Position numbers and translations under genes: made by a program. This document shows, piece after piece, positions 31,723 to 46,132 of a DNA stretch of 64,000 nucleotides. The stretch is from Candidatus Binataceae bacterium (lineage in GTDB: Bacteria > Desulfobacterota > Binatia > Binatales > Binataceae), in contig JBKQNE010000049.1 of assembly GCA_052146355.1 (NCBI GenBank), forward strand, positions 20,031 to 84,030, given 5' to 3'. The notes under the pieces are model-generated. The model ran no database searches. It was given only the letters and a program-made list of their open reading frames with translations, and was not told the DNA's origin. Position 1 is the stretch's first letter. Each line of letters begins with the position of its first letter.

Positions 31723-32609
31723 AGCTTGCGCTCCACTACGAAAGTCGCGACCGCGCGCAACGGATCGGCGCGCTCGTCGAAATCCGCGAGCGCGCGATGG
31801 GCAGTGCGCTCGAGTTCTCGCGCAAATTCGCGCGAGCGTGCCGCGCCCATCAAAGTTGGAAAAGTCGCCTTGCCCGCGGCTTCGTCCTTGCCGGTCCGTT
31901 TGCCCATCTGCTCGGTGGTCGCTTCGACATCGAGGAGGTCATCGATAACCTGGAAAGCCAACCCCAGCGCGCGCGCGTACTCGTCCAAAGACGAAAGCTG
32001 AGCGGCCGAACCGCCGCCGAGTCTGGCGCCGCCGACGATCGACGCGCGAAACAATGCGCCGGTTTTCTTGCTGTGCAGATGCTTCAATTCGTCGAGCGAC
32101 AGCGTCAGACCCTCGCTCTGAAGATCGATCACCTGTCCGCCGACCATTCCGCATGAGCCGGCGGCGCGCGCCAGCTCCGCGACCGTCTCGAGCACGATCG
32201 CCGCAGGCACGCCGTCGGAGGCGGAACGCGCCAGCACGTTGAATGCGTCGGTCAGCAGGCCGTCGCCTGAAAGCGTGGCCATCGCTTCGCCGTAGACCTT
32301 GTGATTGGACGGACGGCCGTGCCGGAGATCGTCGTCATCCATGCACGGCAAGTCGTCGTGAATGAGCGAATAGTTGTGCACCATCTCAACCGCGCACGCG
32401 AAGCCCATCGCGCGCTCGTGCGCTCCGCCCACCGCCTCGCACGACGCGAGCGCCAGGATAGGCCGCAGGCGCTTGCCGCCGCCGAGCAGGCTGTAACGCA
32501 TCGCCTCGTACAGACGAGCGTCGGCGCCGGAAGGTTCCGCGACGACCTTCGACAGCGCGCGCTCGACGAGCGCGGCTCGTTCTTTCAAATAGCGATCGAG
32601 TTGAAACAT
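31719..32609 (-). CDS. ispA: polyprenyl (farnesyl) diphosphate synthase
   Basis: First Asp-rich motif [14 protein letters not shown] and second [10 protein letters not shown] chose the ATG at 32609 (MFQLDRYL...) over the Gly/Pro-rich extension from the ATG at 32711. Confidence 0.85.
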
Positions 32610-32715
32610 GTCTCTAACGGACCCACAAATCCGGCCGCCGGCGCCGGGCATGAATCGCCCGGAAAGCGCGGCCGCACTGCCGCCCGGAGGCGGCCCGCCC
32701 ACATCAACCATCGGC

Positions 32716-33720
32716 TCAGGACATATAATGACGAACCATTCGCCACGAATCCTTTAAATTCTTGCCGAACTCCATCGCGACCGTGCCTTCGAATCCCGAG
32801 TGCAACTTGCAGTCACGGCAGCGGATGTCCTGCTTGGTGCGGTAGAACTCCCAATCCGTCGCCTCGTGCAACTGCTTGAACGTCTGGTAGTGACCGTTGG
32901 TGATGAGGTAACACGGCCCCTTCCATCCGCGCGGATTGCGCGTGACGGTCGTCCACGGGCTGCACGTAAGGTCGCGTTCACCGACCAGGTAGTCGAGGTA
33001 AATCGGGGTATTGATGATCTTGTAGTCGTCGGCGAGCTTGCGGACCTTCTTGAACTTGTACGGCATCTCTTCTTTCTTGAGATAGAGATCGTCGTTGTTC
33101 AGCACCTGGTAATGGTAGCCGGGCGACAGCAGCATGCCGTCCACGCCGAGACTGCCCAGCAGCTTGACGAGTTCTTCCAGCTCTTCGCCGGTCGTCTCGC
33201 GAAAGACCGTAGTGTTGGTCTGCACGCGATAGCCCTTGTCCTTGAGCATCCGGATCATCTTCATGATGATGTCGAAATGACCCTGGCGATCGACGACGCG
33301 GTCGTTAGTTTCGCGCATGCCGTCGATATGGAGATTGAAGCTCAGGTAGGGGCTCGGCGGGACCTGCTTGACGAAGCGCTCGAGCAGGATCGCGTTGGTG
33401 CAGATCATGACGTGGCGGCCCTGCTCTTCGATAAGCCGCGTGGTGAGCGGCGCGATATGCTTGTACATCAGCGGCTCGCCGCCGCAGATAGAGACGATCG
33501 GCGCGCCGCACTCCTGCGCCGATGCGACCGCTTCATCGAGCGGCATCATGTCGCGAATCGTTTCCTTGTACTCGACGATTCGTCCGCATCCGACGCACGC
33601 CAGGTTGCATGCGTGCAAAGGCTCGAGCATCAGCACGAGCGGAAAATATTTCTCACCGGCCCGCTTCTTCCTGCTCATGTAGCGGCCCAGGTCGATCATC
33701 TGCTTAAGCGGTACCCGCAT
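32716..33720 (-). CDS. hpnH: adenosylhopane synthase, radical SAM protein HpnH
   Basis: CNLACVGC radical SAM cluster motif near the N-terminus, 334 aa, and location at the head of the shc/hpnCDE operon. Confidence 0.8.
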   Translation of the reverse strand: MRVPLKQMIDLGRYMSRKKRAGEKYFPLVLMLEPLHACNLACVGCGRIVEYKETIRDMMPLDEAVASAQECGAPIVSICGGEPLMYKHIAPLTTRLIEEQGRHVMICTNAILLERFVKQVPPSPYLSFNLHIDGMRETNDRVVDRQGHFDIIMKMIRMLKDKGYRVQTNTTVFRETTGEELEELVKLLGSLGVDGMLLSPGYHYQVLNNDDLYLKKEEMPYKFKKVRKLADDYKIINTPIYLDYLVGERDLTCSPWTTVTRNPRGWKGPCYLITNGHYQTFKQLHEATDWEFYRTKQDIRCRDCKLHSGFEGTVAMEFGKNLKDSWRMVRHYMS

Positions 33721-33753
33721 TGGTCCTCCCCGCGTTACGAAGTTTCAGAAAAA

Positions 33754-34413
33754 TCAGGCGACGGCTTTGCCGCCGTCGGATGGTGTTTGATTGCCGAACA
33801 GCCACTCGCTGGCCATCGCCACCGCGGCGATCGGATCCAACGGATTGTTGGCCACGAATAGATGCTCGATCAGGATGCCGTTGAGCGCCGACAGCAGAAA
33901 CCCCGCCGCCGCCTCGGGCGAGAACCGGCCTGTGCACAGCCCCTTCTGCTGGGCGCGCGCGATCAGCTCCACCAGCATCGCGCGGTAGCCTGAATAGAGC
34001 TTCAAAACCTGTTCGTTGAGCCCCTCCGAGAAATGCTGGTCGTGCAACATTTGCGCGAGAAAAAAGCGCACTGAACTAGCGTTATCGCGCACGAACAACA
34101 AATAGAACTCCACCAGCTTTTGAATCTGGGCGCGCTCGTCGAGGACGCCGGCTTCCTCGGCAAAGTCGATGAAATACGGTTCGAGCAGCCGGTTCAGAAC
34201 CGCCACGAAAAGCTCTTCCTTGGTCTTGAAGTGCCAGAAGATGAGCGCCTTGCTGACGTGCGCCTCTCGCGCAACCTCAGACATGGAAGTCTCGTGAAAG
34301 CCCCGATTCGCGAACAGATGCATCGCGGCTTTCAGAATCTCATCGCGGGAGTCCTGGGAACTGTGACTATCGGCGGAAACGGTGCGCGTCTCTTCTGGGG
34401 TACTCATTGACAT
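33754..34413 (-). CDS. TetR/AcrR family transcriptional regulator
   Basis: HTH block ILKAAMHLFANRGFHETSMSEVAREAHVSKALIFWHFKTKEELF. First gene of the co-directional hopanoid array. Confidence 0.85.
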   Translation of the reverse strand: MSMSTPEETRTVSADSHSSQDSRDEILKAAMHLFANRGFHETSMSEVAREAHVSKALIFWHFKTKEELFVAVLNRLLEPYFIDFAEEAGVLDERAQIQKLVEFYLLFVRDNASSVRFFLAQMLHDQHFSEGLNEQVLKLYSGYRAMLVELIARAQQKGLCTGRFSPEAAAGFLLSALNGILIEHLFVANNPLDPIAAVAMASEWLFGNQTPSDGGKAVA

Positions 34414-34452
34414 CAAATGTGACGGCCGTCGCTAACCTATCGGTCAATCGTA

Positions 34453-34546: not shown

Positions 34547-35569
34547 TCAGGATGCAATACTTATTTCAGCGCCTAGGCTTTTGGCAGATTCGCGCGCGGC
34601 GACGATGAGCGACAACGCATTTCGCGCTTCGTTGAGATTGGTTCGGGCGGTTGGGGAATCGATACCCTCGGAGATGGCGCGCTCGAACGCCGCTGCCATG
34701 CCAGCAAACCAGGTCGAATGGTACGAATCGTCGACGATGTCCTGCACGGACAGGTCGTGAGTCACGCCTGCCCCGTCAGTAAAGATGGCGCGATCGCCCT
34801 CAATTTCGAGCGTCCCGTTTTCGCCCGATATCGTTGCCGACGTCTTCCTGGCGGCGGCGCGCCAGGAGAGATGCGCCTGCGCGGCGCGGCCGGAGGAAAA
34901 CCTGACGCGGAGATCGGCGACCTCTTCGGTGCCGCCTGCTTCACCCGAGAGACTCGCCGAAATGGCGCCGGGAGCTTCATCGCCCATCAGCCATTGCATC
35001 AGGTAGAAGACGTGCCAGCCATGGTCGATAAGAATTCCTCCACCGGAATCACTGGCCGAGCGCCATGCGCCCCCCGCCCGACCCGTGCCGGCAGGCTCGG
35101 TACGCAGGCGGTCGAGCGAAAGAGAATTGACGGCACCGACCCGTCCATCATCGATGAGCTGACGCGCCATCGCATACGCGGGGGCATACTTCCAATTGTG
35201 CACGCACATCAGGATGCGCCCGTTGGTTCGCGCCAGGCCGGCAAGCTCGTCGAATTCCGCGAGCGAAAGACAAAGCGGCTTCTCGACCAGCACGTGGGCG
35301 CGCGCCTTCAATGCGAGACGCGCCGCCGTCGCATGATACGCGGGCGGACTCGCGATATCGACGAAGTCGAGCGCCTCACCATCGAGCATCAGCTCGAGGT
35401 CGTCGTAGACGCGGACGTTCTTGATTAGCCGAATCGCTTCGTGCCGACGCTCCGAAACGGGATCGTGAATGACGGAGATATTGATCCCGTCGCGGGTGCG
35501 CCATCCGGTCAGATGGGCTTTCGCGGCAACCTCGCCAAAGCCCGATATTGCGCCTCTCAATCGACCCAC
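34547..35569 (-). CDS. Gfo/Idh/MocA family oxidoreductase
   Basis: Rossmann N-terminus (RGAISGFGEVAAKAH), LVEKPL motif and C-terminal alpha/beta domain. The true start is probably GTG 35569 or TTG 35560, overlapping the upstream stop. The long Arg-rich 5' part of ORF 34547..36343 overlaps the LLM gene and is rejected. Confidence 0.75.
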   Translation of the reverse strand: MGRLRGAISGFGEVAAKAHLTGWRTRDGINISVIHDPVSERRHEAIRLIKNVRVYDDLELMLDGEALDFVDIASPPAYHATAARLALKARAHVLVEKPLCLSLAEFDELAGLARTNGRILMCVHNWKYAPAYAMARQLIDDGRVGAVNSLSLDRLRTEPAGTGRAGGAWRSASDSGGGILIDHGWHVFYLMQWLMGDEAPGAISASLSGEAGGTEEVADLRVRFSSGRAAQAHLSWRAAARKTSATISGENGTLEIEGDRAIFTDGAGVTHDLSVQDIVDDSYHSTWFAGMAAAFERAISEGIDSPTARTNLNEARNALSLIVAARESAKSLGAEISIAS

Positions 35570-36408
35570 GCCGCTGCGAGTTCCTCCAGCTCTGGTTCGT
35601 ACTTGTCGGGCGCGAGCGTCGGCGGGAAGAGGATCAGGCGATGGGCGCCCGCGGCGCGATAGGCCTCGACCGCGGCGCGAGGATCTTTGCCGCCCACCGG
35701 AGAGAAAATCGTAATCTCGAGTTTCGAGAAGTCGCGATTTGCTTCGTCGCAGAGCTGCCGCAACTTTGCGAGTTCCAACTTCAATTCTTCCGGCTTGAGC
35801 GCGATCGGCGCCCATCCGTCGCCGATGAGTGCAGTGTTGCGCAGCGCGCGGTCGCCGCCCGCGCCGATGTGGATGGGAGGATGAGGCTTCTGCGCGGGCT
35901 TGGGATTGCTGCGGACGGCAGGAAACTTGACGAATTCGCCCTCGAAGCTGGCTTCGTCGCGCGTCCACAGTTCTTTCATCGCGCGGATGTACTCGCGCGT
36001 CATCGGCCATCGCCGGCGAAAATCGACACCCAGGATTTCGCTCTCGTCGCGCAGCCATCCGGCACCGATTCCAAACAAGAACCGGCCGCCCGAATAGTGA
36101 TCGAGCGTCGCAACCTCCTTGGCGAGATTGAACGGATCGCGCTCCGGCACGAGGCATATTCCGGTGCCCAGCTTGATTCGATTGGTAGCGCCTGCGGCGA
36201 GCGCGAGGCCGACGAAGGGATCGATCATCTGCGAGTAAACAGGCGGAATCTTGCCGTCGGCCCGCGGAAACGAGGTCTTGGGACTTACCGGCATTATCAC
36301 GTGCTCGGGGAGCCAGAACGATTCGTATCCCAGCGCTTCGCACTTGCGCGCGACTGAAACGGGATGAGCAGTGTATGAGGCGATGAAAGCCAGCACTCCG
36401 ATCTTCAT
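35557..36408 (-). CDS. LLM-class (luciferase-like) F420-dependent oxidoreductase
   Basis: 283-aa ORF. The stretch KCEALGYESFWLPEH...GTGICLVPERDP...LFGIGAGW is typical of the F420-dependent LLM subfamily. Confidence 0.8.
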   Translation of the reverse strand: MKIGVLAFIASYTAHPVSVARKCEALGYESFWLPEHVIMPVSPKTSFPRADGKIPPVYSQMIDPFVGLALAAGATNRIKLGTGICLVPERDPFNLAKEVATLDHYSGGRFLFGIGAGWLRDESEILGVDFRRRWPMTREYIRAMKELWTRDEASFEGEFVKFPAVRSNPKPAQKPHPPIHIGAGGDRALRNTALIGDGWAPIALKPEELKLELAKLRQLCDEANRDFSKLEITIFSPVGGKDPRAAVEAYRAAGAHRLILFPPTLAPDKYEPELEELAAAWVD

Positions 36409-36493: not shown

Positions 36494-36679
36494 CTATTCG
36501 GAGCGCTTGAGCATCGCGCCGGCGATCATCATTCCGCTGCCCGCCACTGCCGATGCCAGCGCGGCAATCGCGCGCTCCACGCTTCCCGGCCCCACGCCGG
36601 CGATTATCATGCCCGCCAATCCGGCCATGAAGAGCGTCAGGAAGCCGACGACCAGGACGATGCCTCTGAGAATTTTCAT
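36494..36679 (-). CDS. small membrane protein (61 aa)
   Basis: Two hydrophobic Gly/Ala-rich segments. The ATG is preceded by a GGGGA-type SD. No family recognised. Confidence 0.4.
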   Translation of the reverse strand: MKILRGIVLVVGFLTLFMAGLAGMIIAGVGPGSVERAIAALASAVAGSGMMIAGAMLKRSE

Positions 36680-36820: not shown

Positions 36821-37060
36821 TTACAGTTCGCCGGTCAGCGCGCGGGTGCCCATCACCAATGCGGTTGCACCCAGCGTCGATATCATTATCGCGCCGAACA
36901 GATGATGCGCGTGCACTCCGAACGCCGCGAACATCCAGCCGCCAACCACTCCGCCGATCAGTCCCAGAAAGATGTCGGCGAGGACGCCGTATCCTCGGCC
37001 ACGAATCAATTTCCCGGCGAGCCATCCAGCAACCAAACCAACCAAGATTGAAGCAATCAT
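36821..37060 (-). CDS. GlsB/YeaQ/YmgE family (transglycosylase-associated) stress membrane protein
   Basis: 79-aa product MIASILVGLVAGWLAGKLIRGRGYGVLADIFLGLIGGVVGGW... is the classic family pattern. Confidence 0.8.
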   Translation of the reverse strand: MIASILVGLVAGWLAGKLIRGRGYGVLADIFLGLIGGVVGGWMFAAFGVHAHHLFGAIMISTLGATALVMGTRALTGEL

Positions 37061-37290: not shown

Positions 37291-37767
37291 TTATTTCCAG
37301 CCGAAGAAGTCTTTTGCGTACACGAAGTTGGCGACGCCGGCTGCTTGCGCTGCTTTCTTGTCTACTTCCTGGTCGCCGATCATCGTGGAGTTTTCGAGAT
37401 CGACGCCGTAGATCTCGGCCAGGTCGGTGATCATCCCGCCGCGCGGCTTGCGGCAGTTGCATCCGTCGGCATCGTCATGCGGGCAGATTTGCCATCCGGT
37501 CAGAGTTTCACCGAGCTTATGGTCGAGCTCGACAATCGCGGCTTCGACCGCCTCCATCGTAAAGCGGCCGCGCTTGATCTTCGACTGATTGGTCACGATT
37601 AGAAACAAGTAATCGTGCAGCGGGCCCAGCTTCTCCGCTACGCCCGGCAGCAAATCGACCACGATCTTGCCGTTAGCATCGAGCGGGAGTTCCTGCGACT
37701 CATCGAGCCGCACGAGCGTGCCGCCAAGATCAAAGAATAGCGCCCGGTTTCCGTTCGGATTGGACAT
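37291..37767 (-). CDS. HAD-IIIA phosphatase, GmhB/histidinol-phosphatase-like
   Basis: Zn-finger insert CPHDDADGCNCRKP, motif III/IV GDQEVDKKAA. Motif I reads FFDLGGTL (DxG instead of DxD). Confidence 0.75.
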   Translation of the reverse strand: MSNPNGNRALFFDLGGTLVRLDESQELPLDANGKIVVDLLPGVAEKLGPLHDYLFLIVTNQSKIKRGRFTMEAVEAAIVELDHKLGETLTGWQICPHDDADGCNCRKPRGGMITDLAEIYGVDLENSTMIGDQEVDKKAAQAAGVANFVYAKDFFGWK

Positions 37768-37787
37768 CGCGATTCAAACCCGGATGA

Positions 37788-39146
37788 TCAGGCCGCGCGC
37801 CAGTCGATATTGTCGCGCACGTAGCTGAATACTTCGTCCAGGATCGCGACGCCCGTGTCGGCCTGTTCTTCCGTAATCACCAGCGGCGGATTTATCCGGA
37901 CGCGCGGGAAGTAAGTCATCGTCACGATTCCGCGCTTGAGCGCTTCGAGGAAGATCTGCTCGGTGACTTTGCGGCTCAATGGCTCGCGGGTCTTGAGATC
38001 GCGCACCAGGTCGATGCCGATAAGCAGGCCCTTGCCGCGGACGTCGCCGATAAATTCGTATTTTTCCTTGAGCGCGTTCAGCCGATGGAGCATTTGTCCG
38101 CCGACCTTGCGCGAGTTTTCCACCAGCTTCTCGTCGCGAATCGTCTTGATCGTTTCCGCGACGGCGGTCGCCGCGAGCGGATTACCGCCGTAGCTCGATG
38201 ACGACGCGCTCGGCTTGCCGAACGGCTCGGCCTTGCCGAGCTCTTCGCTCATCAGCACGCCCGAAACCGGGAACCCCGATCCCATGCCTTTGCCGACGGT
38301 CACGATGTCGGGGCTGACGCCGGTGTGATCGACGCCCCACATTTTTCCGGTGCGGCCGAAGCCGGTGATCATCTCATCGGAAATCAGCAGCGCGTTCAGG
38401 TCCTTGGCCACGGACTTGATCGCCGGCAGCCAATCGTCGGGCGGAATGACGTTGCCCGCGGTTCCCTGCATCGGCTCCACCAGGATCGCCGCGACCTCGC
38501 CGGCGGAAGAATTCTTGATTTGATCGCGCGCGAAATCGACGCACAGCAGCCCGCACGACGGATGCTGCAGCTTGAAGGGGCATCGATAACAGTCTGCGTA
38601 CGGCACCTGGTAACGGCCGCCCGGCAGGGGACCATAGCCCTTCTTCGACTCGTCGCCGATCAGTCCGAGCACGCCGCCGGTCTTGCCGTGGAATCCGCCC
38701 CAGAAGCCCACCACTTCATGCTTCTTGGTGGCCGATCGCGCCAGGCGCAGCGCGGCTTCGACCGCTTCGGCCCCGCCGCTGAAAAGATGCGACCGGTTGA
38801 GGCCGCGCGGCGCGACTTCCGCGATCAGCTTGAATGCTTCCGCGCGTTCTTTGGTGGCAAACGTTCCTACGGTCAGGCGCCCCGCCTGTTTGGCGATCGC
38901 CTTGGTGACACGCGGATGGGCATGGCCGAGGCTCGCCACCGCGATGCCCGCATACAGGTCGATATAGGTGTTGCCGTCCGCGTCGGTCAGGGTGGCGCCT
39001 TCGCCGTGATCAAAAGCCACGCCGGCCAGCAACGAGACGCGCTGGCGCCCGGACGCGATATACTTCTGCTCTTCGTCGAAAATCTTGCGGGACTCGGGTC
39101 CGGGGACAGCGGTTTTAACAGAGGGCAGTTTTCCGTTCGATGCCAT
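37788..39146 (-). CDS. class-III (omega) PLP aminotransferase
   Basis: 452 aa with SGGAEAVEAALRLAR, DEMITGFGRTGKMW and the PLP-Lys block TVGKGMGSGFP. An HpnO-like role is possible from context only. Confidence 0.9.
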   Translation of the reverse strand: MASNGKLPSVKTAVPGPESRKIFDEEQKYIASGRQRVSLLAGVAFDHGEGATLTDADGNTYIDLYAGIAVASLGHAHPRVTKAIAKQAGRLTVGTFATKERAEAFKLIAEVAPRGLNRSHLFSGGAEAVEAALRLARSATKKHEVVGFWGGFHGKTGGVLGLIGDESKKGYGPLPGGRYQVPYADCYRCPFKLQHPSCGLLCVDFARDQIKNSSAGEVAAILVEPMQGTAGNVIPPDDWLPAIKSVAKDLNALLISDEMITGFGRTGKMWGVDHTGVSPDIVTVGKGMGSGFPVSGVLMSEELGKAEPFGKPSASSSSYGGNPLAATAVAETIKTIRDEKLVENSRKVGGQMLHRLNALKEKYEFIGDVRGKGLLIGIDLVRDLKTREPLSRKVTEQIFLEALKRGIVTMTYFPRVRINPPLVITEEQADTGVAILDEVFSYVRDNIDWRAA

Positions 39147-39187
39147 CAGCAGCTAGCAACATTCCTTCCAAGAATCGTCGCAAGAGG

Positions 39188-40009
39188 CTAGCGCGCGCGG
39201 GCAAGCAACGAAAGGCCCCTGCGCGCGATCGCGCGAGCCGCCTGGCCGCGCACCCTGCTGAAGCTGGGCCAATCGTTGAAATCGATGATCGCGAACCGGT
39301 CCTCGTTGATGACCGCGTCTCCGCCCCACGCCTCCAGCCCCAGCGCAGCCGATGCTTTCTGCGCGGCATCGGACAGCTCGCGCATCGCGATTTCGGGAAG
39401 TTCGCCGCTCTCGGGCAGCGCGGTGAAGTACGATCCGCCGCTGACGCCATAGAATTTGATCACACCGCCCGGATATTCCTGCTGGACGTATGCGTGCCGA
39501 ACGCCTCTGCGCGCGAGGCCGTTCAGTCTCGCCTCGATTTCCTTGCGTCCGATCGCGCGCTGGACGTCGTCCGCCCCAAGCGCATGCAGGTCGCCGCGCT
39601 TGACGAACACAGGCTGGTCGAGATCGACCGCGCCGAGCGCACGCTGGTCGAGTCGCTGATCGGTCCTGACCAGGGCGCCCACCGGAGTGGGAACGCCGGC
39701 GCGGCCGAGTCCGGGAGCCAGCAAATCGCGGTAGCAGTTGCGAATCGCCAGGGCCGAATTGATCGCCACCGCCCCGTTGCGCTCCACTTCGGCGAGCCTT
39801 CTGAGCGCGCCCTCGCTCTGGCACATCGCGAGCACCAGGTCGGCCTGGATTTCATGCCGATCGAGAAACTCGGTCGGGGACAAAGCTTCCGTCTCAACGC
39901 CTTCGCGCGCGAGTTCGGCCAGCGACGCGTCAAGAATCGCTGCGTCGGCTTCGACCTTGCCCGGCGAATATTCCGGTTCGCGGTAAATTCCGATTGCTCG
40001 ATAACTCAT
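39188..40009 (-). CDS. ATP-grasp domain protein
   Basis: 273 aa. The central VFVKRGD...GVIKFYGV and the C-terminal GGDAVINEDRFAIIDFNDWPSF resemble the ATP-grasp catalytic half. Substrate unknown. Confidence 0.55.
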   Translation of the reverse strand: MSYRAIGIYREPEYSPGKVEADAAILDASLAELAREGVETEALSPTEFLDRHEIQADLVLAMCQSEGALRRLAEVERNGAVAINSALAIRNCYRDLLAPGLGRAGVPTPVGALVRTDQRLDQRALGAVDLDQPVFVKRGDLHALGADDVQRAIGRKEIEARLNGLARRGVRHAYVQQEYPGGVIKFYGVSGGSYFTALPESGELPEIAMRELSDAAQKASAALGLEAWGGDAVINEDRFAIIDFNDWPSFSRVRGQAARAIARRGLSLLARAR

Positions 40010-40011
40010 TG

Positions 40012-40719
40012 TTAACCCACCACCATCCGGCGCGCGGCCTCGAGATCGGAGGCCTCGTCCACATCGATCGCGCCCGCAACTTCGACCGCACCCAGCCGAA
40101 TGTTTTCCTTAACGAGCATCTGCAGGAACGCACGCATCGCCGCGAGCTTCCGCCCCCGCGCGGCGGCGCTGAAACGAAAAATCTCCGTCGGCAGCCAATA
40201 CAATCCTGCCGTGACGAGGGAACTCTCGCGCTCTCCCAATGACGTAATCAACCCCGCTTCCGTTACTTCTGTGAAAAGCGGCTTGCGATCGCCGCGCCAT
40301 TTGGTAACCGCCAGCACGCCGTCGAAGTTCGCTTTTGAGGCGGCAAGTTCTGCCGCCTCCGCCACGAACCGGCGCAACTCGGTTTCCGGAACGATCGCGT
40401 CGACCGTCGCGAGCAGAAAATGGCCGGGGCGAAGCGACTCACCAAGCGTGAACAGCGACTCCATCGAACTCTCGGTGTCGCGTACGACTATTTGCAAAGC
40501 CGCCGGCATGGTAATGCCGCGCGCGAGGGCCGCGGTCTCCGAATTGATGACCGCCAGCACGCTCTCAGCACCCGCTGAGAGCATCGCCGTCGCCTGCCGC
40601 GCCAGCATCGGCTGCCCGCCGACCTCGACGAGCGGCTTGGGAATCGTCGCGCCGCCCGAAGCGCGCAGGCGATCGCCGCGGCCCGCGGCAATTATCGCGC
40701 CTTGAAATCCGGTCACCAT
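40012..40719 (-). CDS. sugar-/alcohol-phosphate nucleotidyltransferase (NTP_transferase fold)
   Basis: Intact AIIAAGRGDRL...PKPL signature (GxGxR...K). 235 aa. Only 2 nt separate it from the ATP-grasp gene, and it overlaps the upstream HAD gene by 7 nt. Confidence 0.8.
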   Translation of the reverse strand: MVTGFQGAIIAAGRGDRLRASGGATIPKPLVEVGGQPMLARQATAMLSAGAESVLAVINSETAALARGITMPAALQIVVRDTESSMESLFTLGESLRPGHFLLATVDAIVPETELRRFVAEAAELAASKANFDGVLAVTKWRGDRKPLFTEVTEAGLITSLGERESSLVTAGLYWLPTEIFRFSAAARGRKLAAMRAFLQMLVKENIRLGAVEVAGAIDVDEASDLEAARRMVVG

Positions 40720-41447
40720 TGCAGCCCCGCAACTTCGTTCAGCGAAGCGATAGTAAAATCCGCGCTCGATTCGGCGCCGGGTTCATCCGGATGCACCGAC
40801 GCACTCGAGCGGTACCAGACGGTTTTCAGGCCCAGGCGATGCGCCGGCGCGCAATCCTTGCCCAACGAATCGCCGATCATCGCCGCCTCGGACGGCTTCA
40901 CACGCAGCGCGCGCAAAGCAGTCTCGAAGATACCGGGCGCGGGCTTGAACACCCCCACTCGGCTGGAGTCAACGATCGAGTCGACCATTTTCTTCACGCC
41001 CGTTTCCGCAAGAATGCCTTCGAGGTTTCCATAAAAGTTGGAAACCACTCCGATTCGGAAATTCGCTTTCAAGTCCTTCAGCACCGGGCGATTCGCTTCA
41101 ATTCCTTTTCTGGTTGCCGTGACAAAGCCCGCCGTCACTTGTTCGACGATCCGATGCCGCGCCTTCGGATCGAGCGTGGCTAATCTGGTGCGGATGCGAT
41201 CCGGCCCTTGATGCGCCAAGAATTCCACCTGATTTCCCGTCAGAAATCGCACCAGATCCACCAACCCAAAGCGCTGAACCACTTTTCCCGCGCGATAACC
41301 CGCTTTCGTCGCATGGTCGAAGGCCGCATCAAGTTCAGCACGATCAAGCTCGACTCCGGCCGCGTGATACTGGATAAGAAATCGATCCAGCCAATGCAGC
41401 GGCCCATCGAGCGTGCCGCCGAAGTCGAAAAGCAGAGCCGATATCAT
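40713..41447 (-). CDS. HAD-IA family hydrolase
   Basis: Motif I LLFDFGGTL, motif II VVSN, motif III KP, motif IV GDSLGKD. First gene of the five-gene minus-strand operon. Confidence 0.8.
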   Translation of the reverse strand: MISALLFDFGGTLDGPLHWLDRFLIQYHAAGVELDRAELDAAFDHATKAGYRAGKVVQRFGLVDLVRFLTGNQVEFLAHQGPDRIRTRLATLDPKARHRIVEQVTAGFVTATRKGIEANRPVLKDLKANFRIGVVSNFYGNLEGILAETGVKKMVDSIVDSSRVGVFKPAPGIFETALRALRVKPSEAAMIGDSLGKDCAPAHRLGLKTVWYRSSASVHPDEPGAESSADFTIASLNEVAGLQW

Positions 41448-41539
41448 CTTCGCGAACCATGCAGTCTATCAGCACCGACGTGCAGCCTCCAGGGTGCAGC
41501 AAAAACCCCGCACCAACAGGGCTGTTTTCGGCCGATCAA

Positions 41540-41568
41540 TTGACACGGCAGCACTCGTACTCTAAATC
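41540..41568 (+). promoter_or_regulatory. candidate sigma-70 promoter for the plus-strand operon
   Basis: TTGACA - 17 nt - TAAATC in the 162-nt divergent intergenic region. A GGAGG lies about 10 nt before the TTG start at 41610. Confidence 0.3.
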
Positions 41569-41609
41569 CATCGCGCGAACCGCGTTCCATTTTCGGAGGC
41601 GTCTCAAGC

Positions 41610-42233
41610 TTGCAGCCCGGATTTCCTAAATCAATTCGCATAGTTGCGTACTTTTTTGCGTCATTGATTTTGATGCTGACCGTTATTCGTGTTGATGCGG
41701 GTACCGCCGATGAAAGTGCCACCGCGACCGTCCGCCAGCTCCTCGCCTCAATAGGCAAGCTGCGTACCACCACCGACGCAGCGCAGAAAAAGATGCCGAT
41801 CGGCTCCATAGATAATTCTCTTGCGATCGAGAAGCTCAGTAAGCAGGCACTTGGTGCGCAATGGAGCAAACTCGACGCTCCCGAGCGCGCTCATTTTGTC
41901 GCGCTAGTAAAGGAACTTCTGGAAAAAATCGCGTATCCGAATGCTGCCCAGTTCTTTGCGGATTTCAGCATCAAGATCGTTGGCGAGGATGCTTCCGGCG
42001 ATCAGCGCACCGTGCAGACGACCGTCACCCGCCCGGAGGGAGGCGCGGTATCGATCAACTACATCCTGGAGCGCATGAACCATCGATGGACCATCGTGGA
42101 TGTCATCCTCGATCGGCAGAGCCTCGCCGCCAGCATGACCACCCAGATTCAGGCGACCCTCAAGAGCAGCTCTTACCAGGACCTGGTCAAGCAGCTTGAA
42201 TCGCGGCTAACGCAGGCGACACCCCCGCATTAG
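41610..42233 (+). CDS. MlaC/Ttg2D-family lipid-binding periplasmic protein (HpnM-like)
   Basis: Signal peptide. The C-terminal block HRWTIVDVILDRQSLAASMTTQIQATL matches the MlaC pattern (W-K-I-Y-D-V-x-V-E-G-V-S-L-V-x-x-Y-R-x-Q-F type). Confidence 0.7.
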   Translation: MQPGFPKSIRIVAYFFASLILMLTVIRVDAGTADESATATVRQLLASIGKLRTTTDAAQKKMPIGSIDNSLAIEKLSKQALGAQWSKLDAPERAHFVALVKELLEKIAYPNAAQFFADFSIKIVGEDASGDQRTVQTTVTRPEGGAVSINYILERMNHRWTIVDVILDRQSLAASMTTQIQATLKSSSYQDLVKQLESRLTQATPPH

Positions 42234-42379: not shown

Positions 42380-43636
42380 TTGACGCGGCACGATGGCCTG
42401 TTTAGGAAACTTGGTTTTAATACGACCTTGGCGATAGAAACCGCTCTAATCTCGGCGCCTTCGCGCGCCGACAACCGCATTTTCGGGCGGCCTTTGCTCG
42501 AACGGTTGATCCTTTCCTGCGAACGGGCGGGAGTTAAGCGCTTCTTCATCGCAGCGCCGGCCGAACGGCACTCCCAGGTAGCGTCCTCGCTCGGTGGCTT
42601 CCAGAGCCATCCTGAGATCAATCTGGTCGACAAGCTCGATTCCTCGATGGCGCGGCAAACCGATCTGGACCCGAGCGCGCCGTGCATTTCCTTCGCGGGC
42701 AATCTGGTTTTTTCCAGGATGCAACTGCGGCGCGTGCTCGACGACGCGGCTAATCATCCGACCAGCGTGCTGCGTTTTTCCAGCAGCGACCCGGACCACG
42801 GCGGCGAAATTACGACCGGTCCGATGCGCGATCTGCTCGAACAGGATACGCCTCGCACCGAGCCAGTCCGCCGGCCGACCGGAGAATTGCCGTTCGCGCT
42901 CAATGGACGCCCGGAAGATCGGAAGGAAGCCGAGATAAGGCTGGCGCGTTCGCTGCGTTTGGAAACGGCATCGAAGGACGCGCTGATGGCGCGGCTGCTC
43001 GATCGCAAGATCTCATGGCGGCTCAGCCTCAGGCTGGCACGCACGAAGATAACCCCCAATCAGGTAACGATCGCCAATACGGTACTCGGCTTTGTCGCGG
43101 CATGGATGTTTGCGATTCCGAGCTACGGCGTCCGCCTGATCGCATCGCTGCTGTTTCTGGCTTCGATCACGATCGACGGAATCGACGGTGAGTTGGCGCG
43201 GCTCCAGATGAGCGAGACGGATTGGGGCGGCAAGCTCGACGTGGCGACGGACAATATCGTCCACGTCGCGATCTTCGTCGGAATCTTCGTAGGGGCTTAT
43301 CGGGCCAGCGCCGATTCCACATTCCTGTGGTTATTGCCCGTTCAATTGGTTGGTTTCGCGCTAAGCGCGTTGTCGATCTTCATGGCGTTTCGTTTTCGAG
43401 GCGCACAGGCCCAGAAATGGATTGATCAGGTGGACCGCTGGAGCGGACGTGATTTCGCATACCTGCTGGTGGGTTTCGCGCTGATTAACCGCTTGCAGTG
43501 GTTTTGTTGGGCGACGGCGTTTGGTACCTATGTATTCGCATTGGTGTTGACGTGGCTCACGGCTCGGCATCGGGCTGTGGAGACACCGGATGAGCCGCTT
43601 CGCGAGAATCGGAGCGTTGCGGCGGAGGAAGCATGA
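42380..43636 (+). CDS. fusion protein: degenerate nucleotidyltransferase-like N-domain + CDP-alcohol phosphotransferase membrane domain
   Basis: The C-terminal half carries DGELARLQMSETDWGGKLDVATD (DG-x2-AR-x8-G-x3-D-x3-D) within about 6 TM segments. The N-terminal roughly 200 aa looks NTP_transferase-like but lacks GxGxR (ISAPSRADNRIFGRPLLERL). The layout recalls IPCT/DIPPS fusions. TTG start uncertain. Confidence 0.8.
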   Translation: MTRHDGLFRKLGFNTTLAIETALISAPSRADNRIFGRPLLERLILSCERAGVKRFFIAAPAERHSQVASSLGGFQSHPEINLVDKLDSSMARQTDLDPSAPCISFAGNLVFSRMQLRRVLDDAANHPTSVLRFSSSDPDHGGEITTGPMRDLLEQDTPRTEPVRRPTGELPFALNGRPEDRKEAEIRLARSLRLETASKDALMARLLDRKISWRLSLRLARTKITPNQVTIANTVLGFVAAWMFAIPSYGVRLIASLLFLASITIDGIDGELARLQMSETDWGGKLDVATDNIVHVAIFVGIFVGAYRASADSTFLWLLPVQLVGFALSALSIFMAFRFRGAQAQKWIDQVDRWSGRDFAYLLVGFALINRLQWFCWATAFGTYVFALVLTWLTARHRAVETPDEPLRENRSVAAEEA

Positions 43637-44961
43637 ACAAGAAGCCCAGGATCCTGTTGGTCCAGCCGACGACCGTGCATCTCGACGGCACTCCGCATAA
43701 GACCCGGTGGCGTCTCATCATGGGATTGATGATCCCGCTGTTGGCCGGCCTCACGCCCGATGACTACGACGTCACGCTTTGCGACGAGCGTCTTGAAGAC
43801 ATCAATTTCGACGGGGGATGGGATCTCGTTGGAATGACCACGACCATCGGCGCATCGCTGCGCGCCTATCAGCTCGGCGATGAATTTCGCCGCCGCGGCA
43901 TTCCGGTCGTATTCGGCGGTTTTCATGCGACGCTGCAAACCGACGAAGCCCTTGAGCACTCCGACGCGGTCGTGCAGGGCGAGGCCGACCTGGTATGGCC
44001 CGAGCTGCTGCAGGATTGGCGTGACGGCAAGCTGAAGCAAATCTACAAGTCGACCAAGGTGCACGATCTCAAGAAGCTGCCGCGTCCGCGCCACGAGCTG
44101 CTGAAGCTCAACCGCTATCTGTTCAAGGCGGTGCCGGTGCAGGCCAGCCGCGGATGCCCCTATCGCTGTTCGTTCTGCGAAATTCCGGTCTTCTACGAGG
44201 GTTCGTATCGCACGCGCCCGATCGAAGACATCGTCGAGGAGATGAAGGAAGTCATCAAGGTCACCGGCTTTCGCCGCTTCCAGTTCATCGACGATCAGAT
44301 CACCGGCAAGCACAAGTTCGCGCGCGAGCTGTTTAAGGCGCTCGAACCGCTCAATATCCGCTTCTCATGCTTGTGGACGATCAACTCGAACCATGACGAT
44401 GAGCTGCTCGAACTGGCGGCCAAGGCGGGAATCTTCCACGTCAATATCGGCGTGGAATCGATCAGCCAGGAAAGCCTGCTGTCGATGAACAAGATTCAGA
44501 ACCACGCCAATCAGTACAAGAAGCTGCTCAAGAAGATGGAGCACTACGGCATCTACTATTCGCTGAACTTCCTGTTCGGTCTCGAGGAAGACCGGCCCGG
44601 CATTTTCGACGAGACGATGAAGTTCCTGCATGAAGTCCGCGCTCCCGAGGCGTTCTTCAACACCGTCACGCCGCGGCGGGGCACGCCGATGCGCACGCAG
44701 CTCGAAAACGAAGGCCGCGTGATCATCCCGGATGCGGATCTCTACACCAATAACTTCCGCTGTATGTTCGTACCCAAGAACATGTCGCCGCAGCAGGTTG
44801 AAGAAGGCGTGTGGAAGTGCACCAAGGAATTCTACTCGTTCAAGTCAATGTTCAAGCGGCTGCTGTTGCCACCGAACAAATTCACCTGGCAGGGCCTGAC
44901 TGAAAACATGCTGTTCTGGTACGGAGCAAAGCGGCAGATCGATCCGGTAGATTACTATTAA
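43633..44961 (+). CDS. B12-binding domain radical SAM protein (DUF4070-type C-terminus)
   Basis: N-terminal cobalamin-binding domain (ILLVQP..., VVFGGFHAT), CPYRCSFC cluster motif. The ATG overlaps the upstream stop (ATGA) and is preceded by GGAGGAAG. Confidence 0.9.
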   Translation: MNKKPRILLVQPTTVHLDGTPHKTRWRLIMGLMIPLLAGLTPDDYDVTLCDERLEDINFDGGWDLVGMTTTIGASLRAYQLGDEFRRRGIPVVFGGFHATLQTDEALEHSDAVVQGEADLVWPELLQDWRDGKLKQIYKSTKVHDLKKLPRPRHELLKLNRYLFKAVPVQASRGCPYRCSFCEIPVFYEGSYRTRPIEDIVEEMKEVIKVTGFRRFQFIDDQITGKHKFARELFKALEPLNIRFSCLWTINSNHDDELLELAAKAGIFHVNIGVESISQESLLSMNKIQNHANQYKKLLKKMEHYGIYYSLNFLFGLEEDRPGIFDETMKFLHEVRAPEAFFNTVTPRRGTPMRTQLENEGRVIIPDADLYTNNFRCMFVPKNMSPQQVEEGVWKCTKEFYSFKSMFKRLLLPPNKFTWQGLTENMLFWYGAKRQIDPVDYY

Positions 44962-45280: not shown

Positions 45281-46132
45281 TCACGGCGTGAGCACGGTGT
45301 TATCGATCAGGCGCGTCTTGCCTACGCGGGCTGCGATTGCGAGCAGCACCGGGTGCTCGATCGATGAGACTCGCTCCAGCGTGGTCGCATCCACCGCTTC
45401 CACGTATTCGATTTCCACGCCTGGCGTCCGTTTGAGCACCCGCTTTGCCACGTATGCCAGCTCTTCGGCGCAGCACGCGCTCTTGCGGTAGTGGTCGCGC
45501 GCGGCACGCAGCGCGAGACTCAGCGCCAGCGCGCGCTGGCGTTCGTCGGGCGACAGATAGGCGTTGCGCGAACTCATCGCGAGTCCGTCGCTTTCGCGCA
45601 CGATCGGCACCGGCACGACCTCCAGGTCGAAGTTCAGGTCGGTGACCATCCGCTGGATCGCGCGCAGTTGCTGGAAATCCTTCTCGCCGAAAATCGCGAA
45701 ATGCGGCTTTACGATATTGAACAACTTGGCGACCACCGTCGTGACGCCGCGAAAATGCCCGGGCCGATGCGGCCCGCACAGCCCCGCGCTCACCTGCGTC
45801 GCCTCGACCCAGGTCTGCGAATCCGGCGCATACATGGCCGACGGATCCGGCGCGAAGACGATATCCACCGGCACCGATTCCATCAGCGCGCAATCGCGCT
45901 CGAAGTTGCGCGGATATCTCGCGAAATCTTCGTTGGGCGCGAACTGGGTCGGATTGACGAAGATCGATGTGACCAACACGCCCGCGCGCCGGCGCCCTTC
46001 GCGCATCAGCGTCAGATGGCCTTCGTGCAGGAAGTCCATCGTCGGCACAAATGCGATCTGCTCGCCGGACCGGCGCGCGCTCTCTGACCAGCGCTGCATC
46101 TCGTCGGGAGTGCGGATTGTATCCATCGTCAA
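45281..46132 (-). CDS. panC: pantoate--beta-alanine ligase
   Basis: The stretch FVPTMDFLHEGHLTLMR matches the HxGH nucleotidyltransferase motif of PanC. 283 aa. The start overlaps the panB stop. Confidence 0.9.
   Translation of the reverse strand: MTMDTIRTPDEMQRWSESARRSGEQIAFVPTMDFLHEGHLTLMREGRRRAGVLVTSIFVNPTQFAPNEDFARYPRNFERDCALMESVPVDIVFAPDPSAMYAPDSQTWVEATQVSAGLCGPHRPGHFRGVTTVVAKLFNIVKPHFAIFGEKDFQQLRAIQRMVTDLNFDLEVVPVPIVRESDGLAMSSRNAYLSPDERQRALALSLALRAARDHYRKSACCAEELAYVAKRVLKRTPGVEIEYVEAVDATTLERVSSIEHPVLLAIAARVGKTRLIDNTVLTP

Follow-up and report, generated by a model that had tools for sequence, protein, structure and literature searches.

A conserved five-gene operon of Binatia that may build an amino-inositol lipid head group by a variant of the CDP-inositol route

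Two described systems resemble the locus analysed here. Rhodothermus marinus carries an operon of myo-inositol-phosphate synthase (MIPS), IPCT and BEPIS, the last of which makes ether inositol phospholipids, as summarised in PMC4587543. Bacteroides and Prevotella have an uncharacterised "alternative inositol lipid cluster", and inositol phosphoceramide is produced by the species that carry it (Heaver et al. 2022, PMC9246714). Our operon comes from an uncultured soil bacterium of the Binatia, and its sequence was found in DNA soil metagenomes only. An earlier note on this DNA stated that the genes match no pathway familiar to its author; however, the core of the operon matches the CDP-inositol (Kennedy-type) route to inositol phospholipids. 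We read the whole as an aminating variant of this route that makes a phospho-inosamine lipid head group, with a probability of roughly 0.55.

The operon is a minus-strand block of five open reading frames at 37291-41447 (Table 1). In order of transcription it encodes a HAD-IA hydrolase, a MobA-like nucleotidyltransferase, an ATP-grasp protein, a class-III aminotransferase and a HAD-IIIA hydrolase, and the junctions are a 7-nt overlap and gaps of 2, 41 and 20 nt; coordinates and spacing are precisely those given in the earlier note. The domain calls made there were borne out by family profiles for HAD-IA, the nucleotidyltransferase, the class-III aminotransferase and the GmhB-like HAD, and by AlphaFold and Foldseek for the ATP-grasp protein. 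Of 61 Binatia species genomes, 57 carry all five genes within 5 kb with order and strand preserved, and in the remaining four the block is cut by contig ends; a chance juxtaposition is therefore not borne out, and the block is a genuine conserved pathway operon. The divergent lipid-handling operon (MlaC-like protein and phosphotransferase) and the nearby hopanoid array (SHC, HpnH, HpnCDE) that had been described are likewise present. A consensus promoter scan of the intergenic region between the two operons gave no significant match.

Table 1. Features of the operon and its surroundings (positions in the analysed stretch)
Feature	Coordinates	Strand	Length	Basis
Gfo/Idh/MocA NAD(P) oxidoreductase	34547..35569	-		best NCBIfam match IolG
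F420-dependent luciferase-like (LLM) oxidoreductase	35557..36408	-		TIGR03619, 255 bits
HAD-IIIA hydrolase, GmhB/histidinol-phosphatase-like	37291..37767	-	158 aa	TIGR01656, 86.9 bits
Class-III (GABA-AT-like) PLP aminotransferase	37788..39146	-	452 aa	Aminotran_3, 332 bits
ATP-grasp protein, unnamed family	39188..40009	-	273 aa	fold from structure model
Sugar/inositol-phosphate nucleotidyltransferase, IPCT-like	40012..40719	-	235 aa	NTP_transf_3 + NTP_transferase
HAD-IA family hydrolase (HAD1)	40713..41447	-	244 aa	Pfam Hydrolase, HAD_2, Hydrolase_like
Divergent intergenic region, presumed shared promoter	41448..41609		162 bp	position between the two operons only
MlaC-family periplasmic lipid-binding protein	41610..42233	+		Pfam MlaC, 71 bits
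CDP-alcohol phosphotransferase	42380..43636	+		CDP-OH_P_transf
B12-binding radical SAM enzyme	43633..44961	+		Radical_SAM + B12-binding

A unit of nucleotidyltransferase, ATP-grasp, HAD-IA and CDP-alcohol phosphotransferase genes was found at at least 595 loci in many phyla. Co-occurrence outside Binatia was counted over 80 loci, each with an ATP-grasp gene: 75 of them also have the phosphotransferase, 72 the nucleotidyltransferase and 70 HAD-IA; MIPS lies beside the four-gene unit in 48. The nucleotidyltransferase gene adjoins the ATP-grasp gene at 58 of 72 loci, and HAD-IA directly precedes MIPS at 30 of 45. Members of the unit, all four of them, are also known from fusions: nucleotidyltransferase to ATP-grasp (P0135, P0175, P0186, P0239 and L065), HAD to nucleotidyltransferase and ATP-grasp (P0208), and ATP-grasp to phosphotransferase (P0259). 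The Prevotella version runs nucleotidyltransferase, ATP-grasp, phosphotransferase and HAD, followed by a DUF5686/BT_1527-like gene, with MIPS present in L078 and L069. No MIPS gene was seen in the window (the whole 64-kb stretch of DNA analysed) or in any Binatia flank, and the link to inositol in Binatia therefore rests on homology to the clusters of other phyla.

The nucleotidyltransferase has an intact GxGxR...PKPL motif. It shows weak end-to-end matches to IPCT/DIPPS (NF041135) and to PDB 2XME and 4MND IPCT, with sugar-1-phosphate enzymes scoring slightly higher than IPCT against its profile, and 30-33% identity to the syntenic enzyme of the Prevotella cluster. The phosphotransferase, divergent from the operon in 55 of 61 Binatia loci, combines several transmembrane segments and an intact DGIDGELAR...GGKLDVATD motif with a degenerate nucleotidyltransferase-like domain at its N-terminus, the architecture of AF2299 and DIPPS. 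Its best NCBIfam match is the C-terminal half of IPCT/DIPPS (73 bits, cut-off 580) and its best PDB matches are AF2299 (1.5e-17) and 4MND. These best matches form an inositol-phosphate-handling clade (DIPPS, AF2299, PIP synthase), within which the protein is equally close to the solute-forming DIPPS and to any lipid synthase. Upstream of it, the MlaC-like protein begins with a signal-like segment. The radical SAM gene, which shares 4 nt with the phosphotransferase gene, encodes a protein with a median identity of 92% over 54 Binatia loci. Orthologues in Geotalea and Desulfobacca (51-54%) stand alone in unrelated contexts, and none was seen beside the cluster in other phyla except for one distant match in L110; the enzyme is probably coupled physically and not specific to the pathway.

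No Pfam or NCBIfam family model matched the third protein of the operon. Its ATP-grasp fold was confirmed in an AlphaFold (AF2) model with a pLDDT of 96.9, for which Foldseek returned Ddl, RimK and LysX (E about 1e-14) as nearest structural neighbours, all of them carboxylate-amine ligases. The family, with 880 cluster representatives at 50% identity, has K137, K185, D243 and N245 among its invariant residues. Its profile matched PsnB, ITPK4 (2e-6), RimK and ITPK1 (4e-4) marginally, the likeness to ITPKs being confined to the C-terminal lobe, and 16 of 79 members touched Pfam Ins134_P3_kin.

The aminotransferase (motifs DEMITGFGRTG and TVGK) is 48-51% identical to its counterparts in Verrucomicrobia and Elusimicrobia clusters. 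All 35 non-Binatia loci with this gene have it directly 3' of the ATP-grasp gene, and 31 also carry a Gfo/Idh/MocA gene, the four misses being truncated contigs; a Gfo/Idh/MocA gene without the aminotransferase was never seen in the clusters of other phyla (80 loci). MIPS is also present in 14 aminotransferase clusters, from Ignavibacteria, Verrucomicrobiota, Acidobacteriota and Nitrospirae. In the window the dehydrogenase lies 1.7 kb downstream of the five-gene block, beyond the range of the earlier note. It matches inositol 2-dehydrogenase IolG at 79 bits, below cut-off, and shares 33-37% identity with the homologue encoded immediately behind the aminotransferase in L064 and L067. It is found downstream of the operon in most Binatia loci and directly after HAD-IIIA in the divergent relative L095, and is absent from the flank of the closest relative, L083. 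The LLM oxidoreductase gene, which has 13 nt in common with the dehydrogenase gene, is possibly accessory; it occurs in 45 of 61 Binatia loci, is absent from L095, and was not seen in the clusters of other phyla.

Phosphomonoesterases normally need the Asp+2 general acid. Motif I of the HAD-IA protein reads DFGGT and lacks this residue, motifs II-IV being intact, and the pattern D-x-G/S/A-G-T was found in 78 homologues across phyla. HAD-IIIA, a HisB-N-like protein with a CxHx6CxC zinc loop, has DLGGT at motif I, and its +2 residue varies among G, A, T, C and V in Binatia. Because Asp+2 is missing, phosphatase roles for both proteins are shaky. The HAD-IIIA gene was absent from all 80 non-Binatia clusters and is a Binatia-specific addition. 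The likeness to an NDP-heptose route that had been suggested is not supported: HAD-IIIA scores 85 bits against GmhB PRK08942 (cut-off 178), and GmhA and HddA are missing.

We propose a pathway whose direct basis is gene content, motifs, the ATP-grasp fold, synteny, fusions and co-occurrence with MIPS, dehydrogenase and phosphotransferase; from these we infer which substrate is used in Binatia, how the steps follow one another, that the ATP-grasp protein is a kinase, what both HAD hydrolases do and which acceptor is used. The five genes would be the cytoplasmic part, which builds and activates the head group, and the divergent phosphotransferase would carry out the membrane step. The route would start from inositol-3-phosphate, supplied by a synthase whose gene lies elsewhere, or from inositol uptake, and inositol-3-phosphate would be dephosphorylated by a HAD hydrolase, for which HAD-IA is the candidate (a pyrophosphatase role is an alternative). 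The dehydrogenase would oxidise one ring hydroxyl of inositol, or of a derivative, to the ketone on which the aminotransferase would act as an inosose-to-inosamine transaminase; to our knowledge, the inosose aminotransferases described so far are DegT-family enzymes and not class III. The ATP-grasp protein, a putative kinase for inositol or inosamine, would re-phosphorylate the inosamine. The nucleotidyltransferase would then use CTP to form CDP-inosamine, a CDP-alcohol being its most likely product, in keeping with the NDP/CDP activation suggested in the earlier note. Finally, the phosphotransferase, proposed to move a phospho-head group from a CDP-alcohol to an acceptor, would transfer phospho-inosamine to a lipid alcohol, which might be diacylglycerol, an ether lipid or a ceramide-like molecule. 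This would yield a zwitterionic aminocyclitol phospholipid, and the MlaC-like protein, a possible carrier, may ferry it to the outer membrane.

Other readings change single parts of this scheme. The ATP-grasp protein might be an amide ligase instead of a kinase and the head group an N-acylated aminocyclitol, which we consider unlikely; it would (amino)acylate the amine that the aminotransferase produces, or else link a carboxylate with an amino-alcohol phosphate, the reaction of Cj1438 in Campylobacter capsule synthesis. The best Foldseek matches, profile matches to PsnB and RimK as strong as those to ITPKs, and the invariable position of the aminotransferase after the ATP-grasp gene speak for it. 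However, 45 of the 80 clusters, including all those of Bacteroidales, have the ATP-grasp gene without an aminotransferase, there fused or adjacent to the nucleotidyltransferase, and the cluster has no conserved enzyme that would supply a carboxylate. A kinase paired with a nucleotidyltransferase is a common logic for nucleotide-activated alcohols. It is quite unlikely that the same chemistry leads to a soluble phosphodiester, a compatible solute related to di-myo-inositol phosphate or glycerophosphoinositol but aminated. The phosphotransferase would in that case couple a CDP-alcohol with a soluble alcohol phosphate, and the terminal phosphate would be stripped by a HAD hydrolase. Two HAD hydrolases are at hand for that last step, and the phosphotransferase shares an N-terminal cytosolic domain with its best matches, IPCT/DIPPS and AF2299; yet its DIPPS score is far under the family cut-off, an MlaC-family lipid carrier is co-located both here and in the Nitrospirae cluster L148, and homologous clusters are tied to lipids, namely the BEPIS ether lipids of Rhodothermus and the inositol phosphoceramide of Bacteroides and Prevotella.

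A hopanoid product is very unlikely, whether aminobacteriohopanetriol made by an HpnO-like aminotransferase or a phospho-head group on bacteriohopanepolyol. The operon adjoins SHC, HpnH, HpnCDE and FPP synthase genes, an arrangement kept in most Binatia loci, and the MlaC-like protein weakly matches HpnM (50 bits, cut-off 160), but gene order shared inside a single class may reflect descent and not function. The unit of aminotransferase, ATP-grasp and dehydrogenase is also seen in Elusimicrobia, Verrucomicrobiota, Ignavibacteria and other lineages, and its invariant partners are inositol-pathway genes. SHC and HpnH queries found no match on the first distant loci, to which this screen was confined, and no hopanoid family was seen among the scanned flanking genes of L064 and L067. 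The HpnO role raised in the earlier note is not supported, the aminotransferase keeping its ATP-grasp and dehydrogenase partners in lineages where hopanoid genes were not seen in the sampled flanks (±9-10 kb); for a hopanoid acceptor the evidence speaks neither way. CDP-alcohols are also donors for teichoic-acid-like and capsular polymers, and decoration of such a polymer with a phospho-cyclitol, in place of a membrane lipid, is the least probable of the alternatives. Glycosyltransferase genes flank the Verrucomicrobia cluster and inositol was found in the Bacteroides capsule (Heaver et al. 2022, PMC9246714), but over the 141 loci examined the unit has no glycosyltransferase, flippase or polymerase as a conserved neighbour, and the transferase is of the small-molecule/lipid CDP-alcohol phosphotransferase family and not of the TagF/LicD type.

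Of the suggestions in the earlier note, comparative genomics favours the amino-polyol lipid head group. As to the parts it had missed, the transferase is supplied by the divergent phosphotransferase, and the place of the isomerase is taken in relatives by MIPS. The Prevotella version of the cluster agrees with the alternative inositol lipid cluster that Heaver et al. described (PMC9246714) and also with the MIPS-IPCT-BEPIS operon of Rhodothermus marinus, as summarised in PMC4587543. The ATP-grasp gene is part of the unit here and is mentioned neither for the Rhodothermus operon nor for the Bacteroides/Prevotella cluster in these descriptions. We found no description of an amino-inositol lipid head group in the literature searched. 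Compared with the known CDP-inositol route, the Binatia locus has two extra enzymes, the aminotransferase and the dehydrogenase, whose probable effect is that the head group becomes an amino-inositol in place of inositol.

Five genes packed on the minus strand, encoding a HAD-IA hydrolase, a nucleotidyltransferase (NTase), an ATP-grasp protein, a class-III aminotransferase and a HAD-IIIA hydrolase, form a block that is more than a chance juxtaposition. Their open reading frames have the positions and spacing claimed in the earlier note (overlapping by 7 nt at the first junction, then separated by 2, 41 and 20 nt). In 57 of 61 Binatia species-representative genomes all five keep this order on one strand inside a 5-kb span; the other four loci are interrupted by contig ends. 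The gene for a CDP-alcohol phosphotransferase is divergent from the operon in 55 of these 61 genomes, and a B12-binding radical SAM gene comes next after it in 54. Profile searches matched the first, second, fourth and fifth proteins to HAD-IA, NTase, class-III aminotransferase and HAD-IIIA families, and the NTase motif described as intact is seen in the sequence. The sequence comes from an uncultured Candidatus Binatia bacterium (Binataceae/Binatus MAGs). Metagenomes holding the window sequence were of soil DNA only, with no transcript evidence for the operon among them, and a promoter and terminator scan gave a site count not above that of shuffled sequence.

Features of the operon and its surroundings in the window
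Feature	Position	Strand	Remarks
HAD-IA hydrolase	40713-41447	minus	244 aa; profile search
MobA-like / sugar-phosphate nucleotidyltransferase	40012-40719	minus	235 aa; profile search; AAGRGDRLR...PKPL intact
ATP-grasp protein	39188-40009	minus	273 aa; no profile match; structure model
Class-III aminotransferase	37788-39146	minus	452 aa; 332 bits; DEMITGFGRTG and TVGK motifs in sequence
HAD-IIIA, GmhB / histidinol-phosphatase type	37291-37767	minus	158 aa; CxHx6CxC loop
Small predicted membrane protein	36821-37060	minus	79 aa; weak Transgly_assoc/GlsB-type match
Small predicted membrane protein	36494-36679	minus	61 aa
F420-dependent LLM oxidoreductase	35557-36408	minus	13-nt overlap with dehydrogenase gene, other frame
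Gfo/Idh/MocA oxidoreductase	34547-35569	minus	top NCBIfam match inositol 2-dehydrogenase IolG, 79 bits, under cut-off
MlaC-family protein	41610-42233		
CDP-alcohol phosphotransferase	42380-43636	plus	
B12-binding radical SAM protein	43633-44961	plus	4-nt overlap with phosphotransferase gene
Pantothenate genes	45281-46974	minus	panC 45281-46132; panB assigned from relative L083
Hopanoid/isoprenoid block	24226-34416	minus	HpnE-like amine oxidase, two SQS_PSY genes (HpnD/HpnC-like), Dxr, SHC (732 bits), Zn-dependent ADH, FPP/GGPP synthase, HpnH (380 bits), TetR regulator
Caroten_synth (PF04240) protein	22309-23208	minus	
YdjC-family protein	18305-19216	minus	family including hopanoid deacetylase HpnK
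Second B12-binding radical SAM protein	5478-7001	minus	

The third protein had no profile-search match at all, and its assignment comes from an AlphaFold model built from 79 diverse homologues (pLDDT 96.9, pTM 0.92; AF2). Foldseek neighbours of the model are D-Ala-D-Ala ligases (Ddl), RimK and LysX (TM 0.6-0.76, E down to 8.5e-15), and residues K137, K185, D243 and N245 are invariant across the 79 sequences. Judged by the model, the protein is an ATP-grasp enzyme, as had been proposed, with the predicted three-domain fold, ATP-binding lysines and metal-binding D/E-x-N of the superfamily. Because the family, with 880 representatives at 50% clustering, is unnamed, this protein was chosen as the best search handle. 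A broad scan of species-representative genomes with the family motif [IV]DxN[DA]WPSF yielded at least 595 confirmed loci, and neighbour counts were taken from the best 80 non-Binatia loci among them.

Outside Binatia the ATP-grasp homologues occupy small clusters. In the best 80 non-Binatia loci, the most frequent neighbours are the CDP-alcohol phosphotransferase (75), the NTase (72) and HAD-IA (70), followed by myo-inositol-phosphate synthase (MIPS; 48), the class-III aminotransferase (35) and a Gfo/Idh/MocA oxidoreductase (31). Within the same set, the NTase lies immediately 5' of the ATP-grasp gene in 58 of 72 loci, and HAD-IA stands immediately ahead of MIPS in 30 of 45, being the commonest direct neighbour of that gene. 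Fusions connect all four core enzymes: NTase to ATP-grasp in P0135, P0175, P0186, P0239 and a 549-aa protein of locus L065, HAD to NTase and ATP-grasp in P0208, and ATP-grasp to the phosphotransferase in P0259. A Prevotella locus (L073) has the order NTase, ATP-grasp, CDP-alcohol phosphotransferase, HAD-IA and a DUF5686 / CarboxypepD_reg protein, and MIPS belongs to the cluster in loci L078 and L069. From these counts, gene orders and fusions we conclude that four enzymes make up the core, as a unit with ties to the synthesis of inositol phosphate. A MIPS gene itself appears to be missing from the Binatia clusters: tblastn with a Prevotella MIPS against the window and all Binatia flanks returned nothing even at E=5.

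Two members of the unit have the sequence motifs expected in CDP-inositol phospholipid clusters. The window NTase matches NTP_transf_3 and NTP_transferase, keeps G13, R17 and K28 invariant in 38 orthologues, and aligns end to end with the IPCT structures 2XME and 4MND, although a profile-to-PDB search did not separate IPCT from sugar-1-phosphate enzymes. It thereby resembles the soluble nucleotidyltransferase with a GxGxR...K signature that characterises inositol-phospholipid clusters. The adjacent phosphotransferase matches PF01066, has predicted transmembrane segments and an intact DGIDGELAR...GGKLDVATD stretch (residue 266), and by its DxxDGxxAR...GxxxDxxxD motif corresponds to the second characteristic member of such clusters.

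The aminotransferase and dehydrogenase genes occur as a pair that is added to this core. Among the best 80 non-Binatia loci, the aminotransferase gene lies immediately 3' of ATP-grasp in all 35 loci that have it, the Gfo/Idh/MocA gene never occurs without it, and the four aminotransferase loci without Gfo/Idh/MocA are truncated contigs. MIPS is also present in 14 aminating clusters, as in an Ignavibacteria cluster (NTase ... Grasp-AT-phosphotransferase-Gfo-HAD-MIPS) and in the Nitrospirae MAG locus L148 (HAD-NTase-Grasp-AT-Gfo-phosphotransferase-MIPS). An MlaC-like gene was noted 2.7 kb upstream in L148, which is the sole non-Binatia locus with an MlaC match. The window dehydrogenase, which sits outside the coordinates given in the earlier note, shares 33-37% identity with the gene right after the aminotransferase of loci L064 (Verrucomicrobia) and L067 (Elusimicrobia). 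It is retained downstream in most Binatia loci, and directly follows HAD-IIIA in L095, a relative that branches deeply and has just 45% identity in its ATP-grasp. Positions 5385-9995 of the Elusimicrobia MAG locus L067, upstream of ATP-grasp, hold an N run, a fragmented nucleotidyltransferase and a spurious 693-aa ORF, and look like an assembly gap and not biology. In the window, a 598-aa ORF at 34547-36343 of the minus strand was discarded as an artefact, the real genes there being those for the dehydrogenase and the LLM oxidoreductase.

Both HAD proteins depart from the usual catalytic pattern. Motifs II-IV (S/T, K, GDxxxD) are present in their sequences, and the Asp+2 general acid is gone from motif I (DFGGT in HAD-IA, DLGGT in HAD-IIIA); none of the 78 HAD-IA and 64 HAD-IIIA homologues surveyed has it. 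Glycine replaces it in HAD-IA of Binatia, Bacteroidales (DYGGT) and Verrucomicrobia (DLGGT). By sequence, neither protein has the motif I DxD of HAD phosphomonoesterases, a loss that would be unusual for such enzymes; both may prefer substrates with good leaving groups, such as pyrophosphate, whose removal would draw cytidylyl transfer forward, or may use another acid. HAD-IIIA was absent from all of the best 80 non-Binatia loci and is specific to Binatia.

The activity of the ATP-grasp protein can be read in two ways. As a ligase, it would follow the serinol-phosphate amide logic reportedly used by Campylobacter Cj1435-1438, and ligases do dominate its structural neighbours; the family profile also matches PsnB (1.1e-6) and RimK (1.3e-4) about as well as the inositol kinases ITPK4 (2.2e-6) and ITPK1 (3.6e-4). 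However, 45 of the best 80 non-Binatia clusters contain the ATP-grasp gene and no aminotransferase, and we retain this reading solely as a rival. A kinase is favoured by this occurrence in clusters without any amine-forming enzyme, by the NTase-Grasp fusions, since kinase-pyrophosphorylase pairing is a common design, and by the ITPK similarity, which falls in the metal-binding lobe. ITPK1 and ITPK4 share the ATP-grasp fold with the window family, whose genomic context is inositol metabolism, and their C-terminal metal-binding region (GGD...IDxNDWPSF) and KFY strand align with it, whereas the sequence similarity is marginal and ligases rank first structurally. The window protein reaches the inositol kinase family PF05770 (Ins134_P3_kin) at E 0.089, and 16 of 79 family members do so at E up to 1 (best 0.0022), all under the cut-off. 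The kinase assignment is putative.

With the ATP-grasp protein as a kinase, a pathway can be proposed. The starting compound would be either imported inositol or inositol-3-phosphate that a MIPS gene at another locus provides, and HAD-IA would remove the phosphate, a step consistent with its position as the commonest direct neighbour of MIPS. The Gfo/Idh/MocA enzyme would then oxidise the ring to an inosose, the class-III aminotransferase would aminate it, and the ATP-grasp kinase would phosphorylate the aminated product. Activation by the NTase with CTP would give a CDP-alcohol, from which the phosphotransferase would move the phospho-head group onto a lipid alcohol; the MlaC-family protein could plausibly carry the lipid product. 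In non-aminating clusters, we infer that HAD and kinase would together relocate the phosphate, from where MIPS places it to the linkage position.

The furthest-reaching reading, to which we give a probability of about one in three (0.35), is that at least seven phyla make an undescribed class of zwitterionic aminocyclitol (phospho-inosamine) membrane lipids via CDP-inosamine, and that the ATP-grasp protein is a new bacterial inositol/inosamine kinase, one that would also have escaped notice as a fourth enzyme in the 'alternative' route of gut Bacteroides and Prevotella. Soil and sediment carriers may include Binatia, Verrucomicrobiota, Ignavibacteria, Acidobacteriota, Nitrospirae, Rokubacteria/Methylomirabilota and Elusimicrobia. 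Bacterial inositol lipids were once thought rare. The at least 595 loci in species-representative genomes indicate that the CDP-inositol route, a second route that is uncharacterised in gut Bacteroidota, is widespread, and its aminating version is frequent. The predicted product of that version is an amino-inositol phospholipid, none of which is described in the literature searched; these searches returned nothing on inosamine with CDP-alcohols or lipids, nor on ATP-grasp in CDP-inositol pathways. If the reading is true, it would add a new class of polar lipids that might serve as a biomarker of soil lineages which are abundant but uncultured, provide a concrete gene set to complete the Bacteroides/Prevotella pathway, and define a new family of kinases or ligases.

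Other readings start from the surroundings of the operon. The hopanoid genes claimed to lie nearby do adjoin it, and the aminotransferase had been considered as an HpnO-type enzyme, which is likewise a class-III aminotransferase adjoining hopanoid genes. Its orthologues of 48-51% identity, however, lie within ATP-grasp/dehydrogenase clusters of other phyla, where the partners are ATP-grasp, the dehydrogenase and inositol-pathway genes. As these partners are kept in other phyla and no hopanoid genes turned up in the flanks examined, an HpnO-like role appears unlikely, judged by context and not by sequence comparison. This screen covered the distant loci L064-L082, where SHC and HpnH queries had no match, and the genes around L064 and L067, among which Pfam searches found no hopanoid family. 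A hopanoid as the head-group acceptor is conceivable, though nothing supports it. The resemblance to NDP-heptose synthesis, among the earlier note's ALTERNATIVES, did not hold either: matches to the GmhB models reach 85 and 65 bits, with cut-offs at 178 and 150, and no isomerase or sugar kinase was found in the block or across 141 related loci, so that neither the GmhA-HddA/HldE-GmhB-HddC pathway nor 'pieces' of a compatible-solute route were retained. A weak PhpK match of the B12-binding radical SAM protein raised a phosphonate (PntC/Fom3-like) reading, which was rejected since neither the block nor the annotated part of the window genes showed a PEP mutase and since the radical SAM orthologues stand alone elsewhere. 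Assignment of this protein as HpnJ, HpnP or HpnR was also rejected, all scores being far under the cut-offs.

The same radical SAM protein has a median identity of 92% across 54 Binatia species, compared with 55-78% for adjacent genes, and its orthologues in Geotalea uraniireducens and Desulfobacca (51-54%) are stand-alone genes in unrelated contexts; it is linked physically and probably not specific to the pathway. Two Binatia loci (L051 and L052) carry a second phosphotransferase paralogue (41-46% identity) past it, which places the radical SAM gene between two transferases. The LLM oxidoreductase is conserved in one Binatia subgroup only, and the two small membrane proteins between it and HAD-IIIA are also found in the closest relative, L083. 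On the right, the conserved block is limited by the pantothenate genes. The YdjC-family, second B12-binding radical SAM and Caroten_synth genes lie upstream of the hopanoid block and may also take part in tailoring hopanoids or carotenoids.

Among known systems, oxidation and amination of a cyclitol by a dehydrogenase and an aminotransferase is the classical route to inosamines, as for scyllo-inosamine in the streptomycin and rhizopine pathways, and the kanosamine route (NtdC/NtdA/NtdB) is analogous, with a HAD phosphatase used in NtdABC. The aminating clusters would share with these routes the oxidation of a secondary alcohol by a Gfo/Idh/MocA-type enzyme and a subsequent PLP transamination. 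The known routes differ in their aminotransferases, which are of the DegT/fold-type-I sugar type, whereas that of the window is class III (GABA-AT-like), and none of them is known to supply a CDP-alcohol phosphotransferase. The top family and PDB matches of the window phosphotransferase are IPCT/DIPPS and AF2299, including an N-terminal cytosolic nucleotidyltransferase-like domain. This AF2299/DIPPS-like domain is degenerate, with no GxGxR signature left, and a separate protein, not a fused domain, provides the active NTase. NF041135 is matched at 72.9 bits, far under its equivalog cut-off of 580. The DIPPS product, moreover, is a solute of hyperthermophiles (di-myo-inositol phosphate) and not a lipid.

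Rhodothermus marinus offers another parallel: its MIPS-IPCT-BEPIS operon is reported to make inositol phospholipids in a CDP-inositol-dependent manner (Jorge et al. 2015, summarised in PMC4587543). There, a soluble nucleotidyltransferase forms a CDP-cyclitol and a CDP-alcohol phosphotransferase transfers the phospho-head group onto a lipid alcohol; MIPS likewise adjoins the related genes in clusters of other phyla. The likeness is drawn from gene content, and in contrast the window has no MIPS and has an additional ATP-grasp, two HADs, a class-III aminotransferase and a Gfo/Idh/MocA enzyme. A further counterpart is found in Bacteroides vulgatus and Prevotella, whose putative 'alternative inositol lipid cluster' is proposed to form CDP-inositol and then PI or inositol phosphoceramide (Heaver et al. 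2022, PMC9246714) and is still uncharacterised according to a 2023 review (PMC10191378). This cluster likewise combines an NTP transferase, a CDP-alcohol phosphatidyltransferase and a HAD hydrolase, often adjoining MIPS and a BT_1527-like protein. The Prevotella cluster is homologous and has the same arrangement, with identities to the window of 28-33% for NTase, 25-30% for HAD-IA and 29-34% for ATP-grasp. A Bacteroides NTase-Grasp fusion used as a query for Phocaeicola vulgatus gave eight loci, none from P. vulgatus, so that the link to BVU_RS13095-13115 is one of gene content and not of the same record. The Bacteroidales clusters have no aminotransferase, dehydrogenase or HAD-IIIA. The term ATP-grasp has zero occurrences in PMC9246714, and the PMC4587543 account of the CDP-inositol route does not mention it, whereas in the present loci it is always included as the most constant member, often fused to NTase. 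The earlier statement that the operon matches no known pathway thus stands in part: ATP-grasp and HAD proteins as constant partners, an aminating version that is widespread, and the extras specific to Binatia all appear undescribed in the literature searched, but the CDP-alcohol head-group pathway for inositol lipids on which they build is an already known kind of system.
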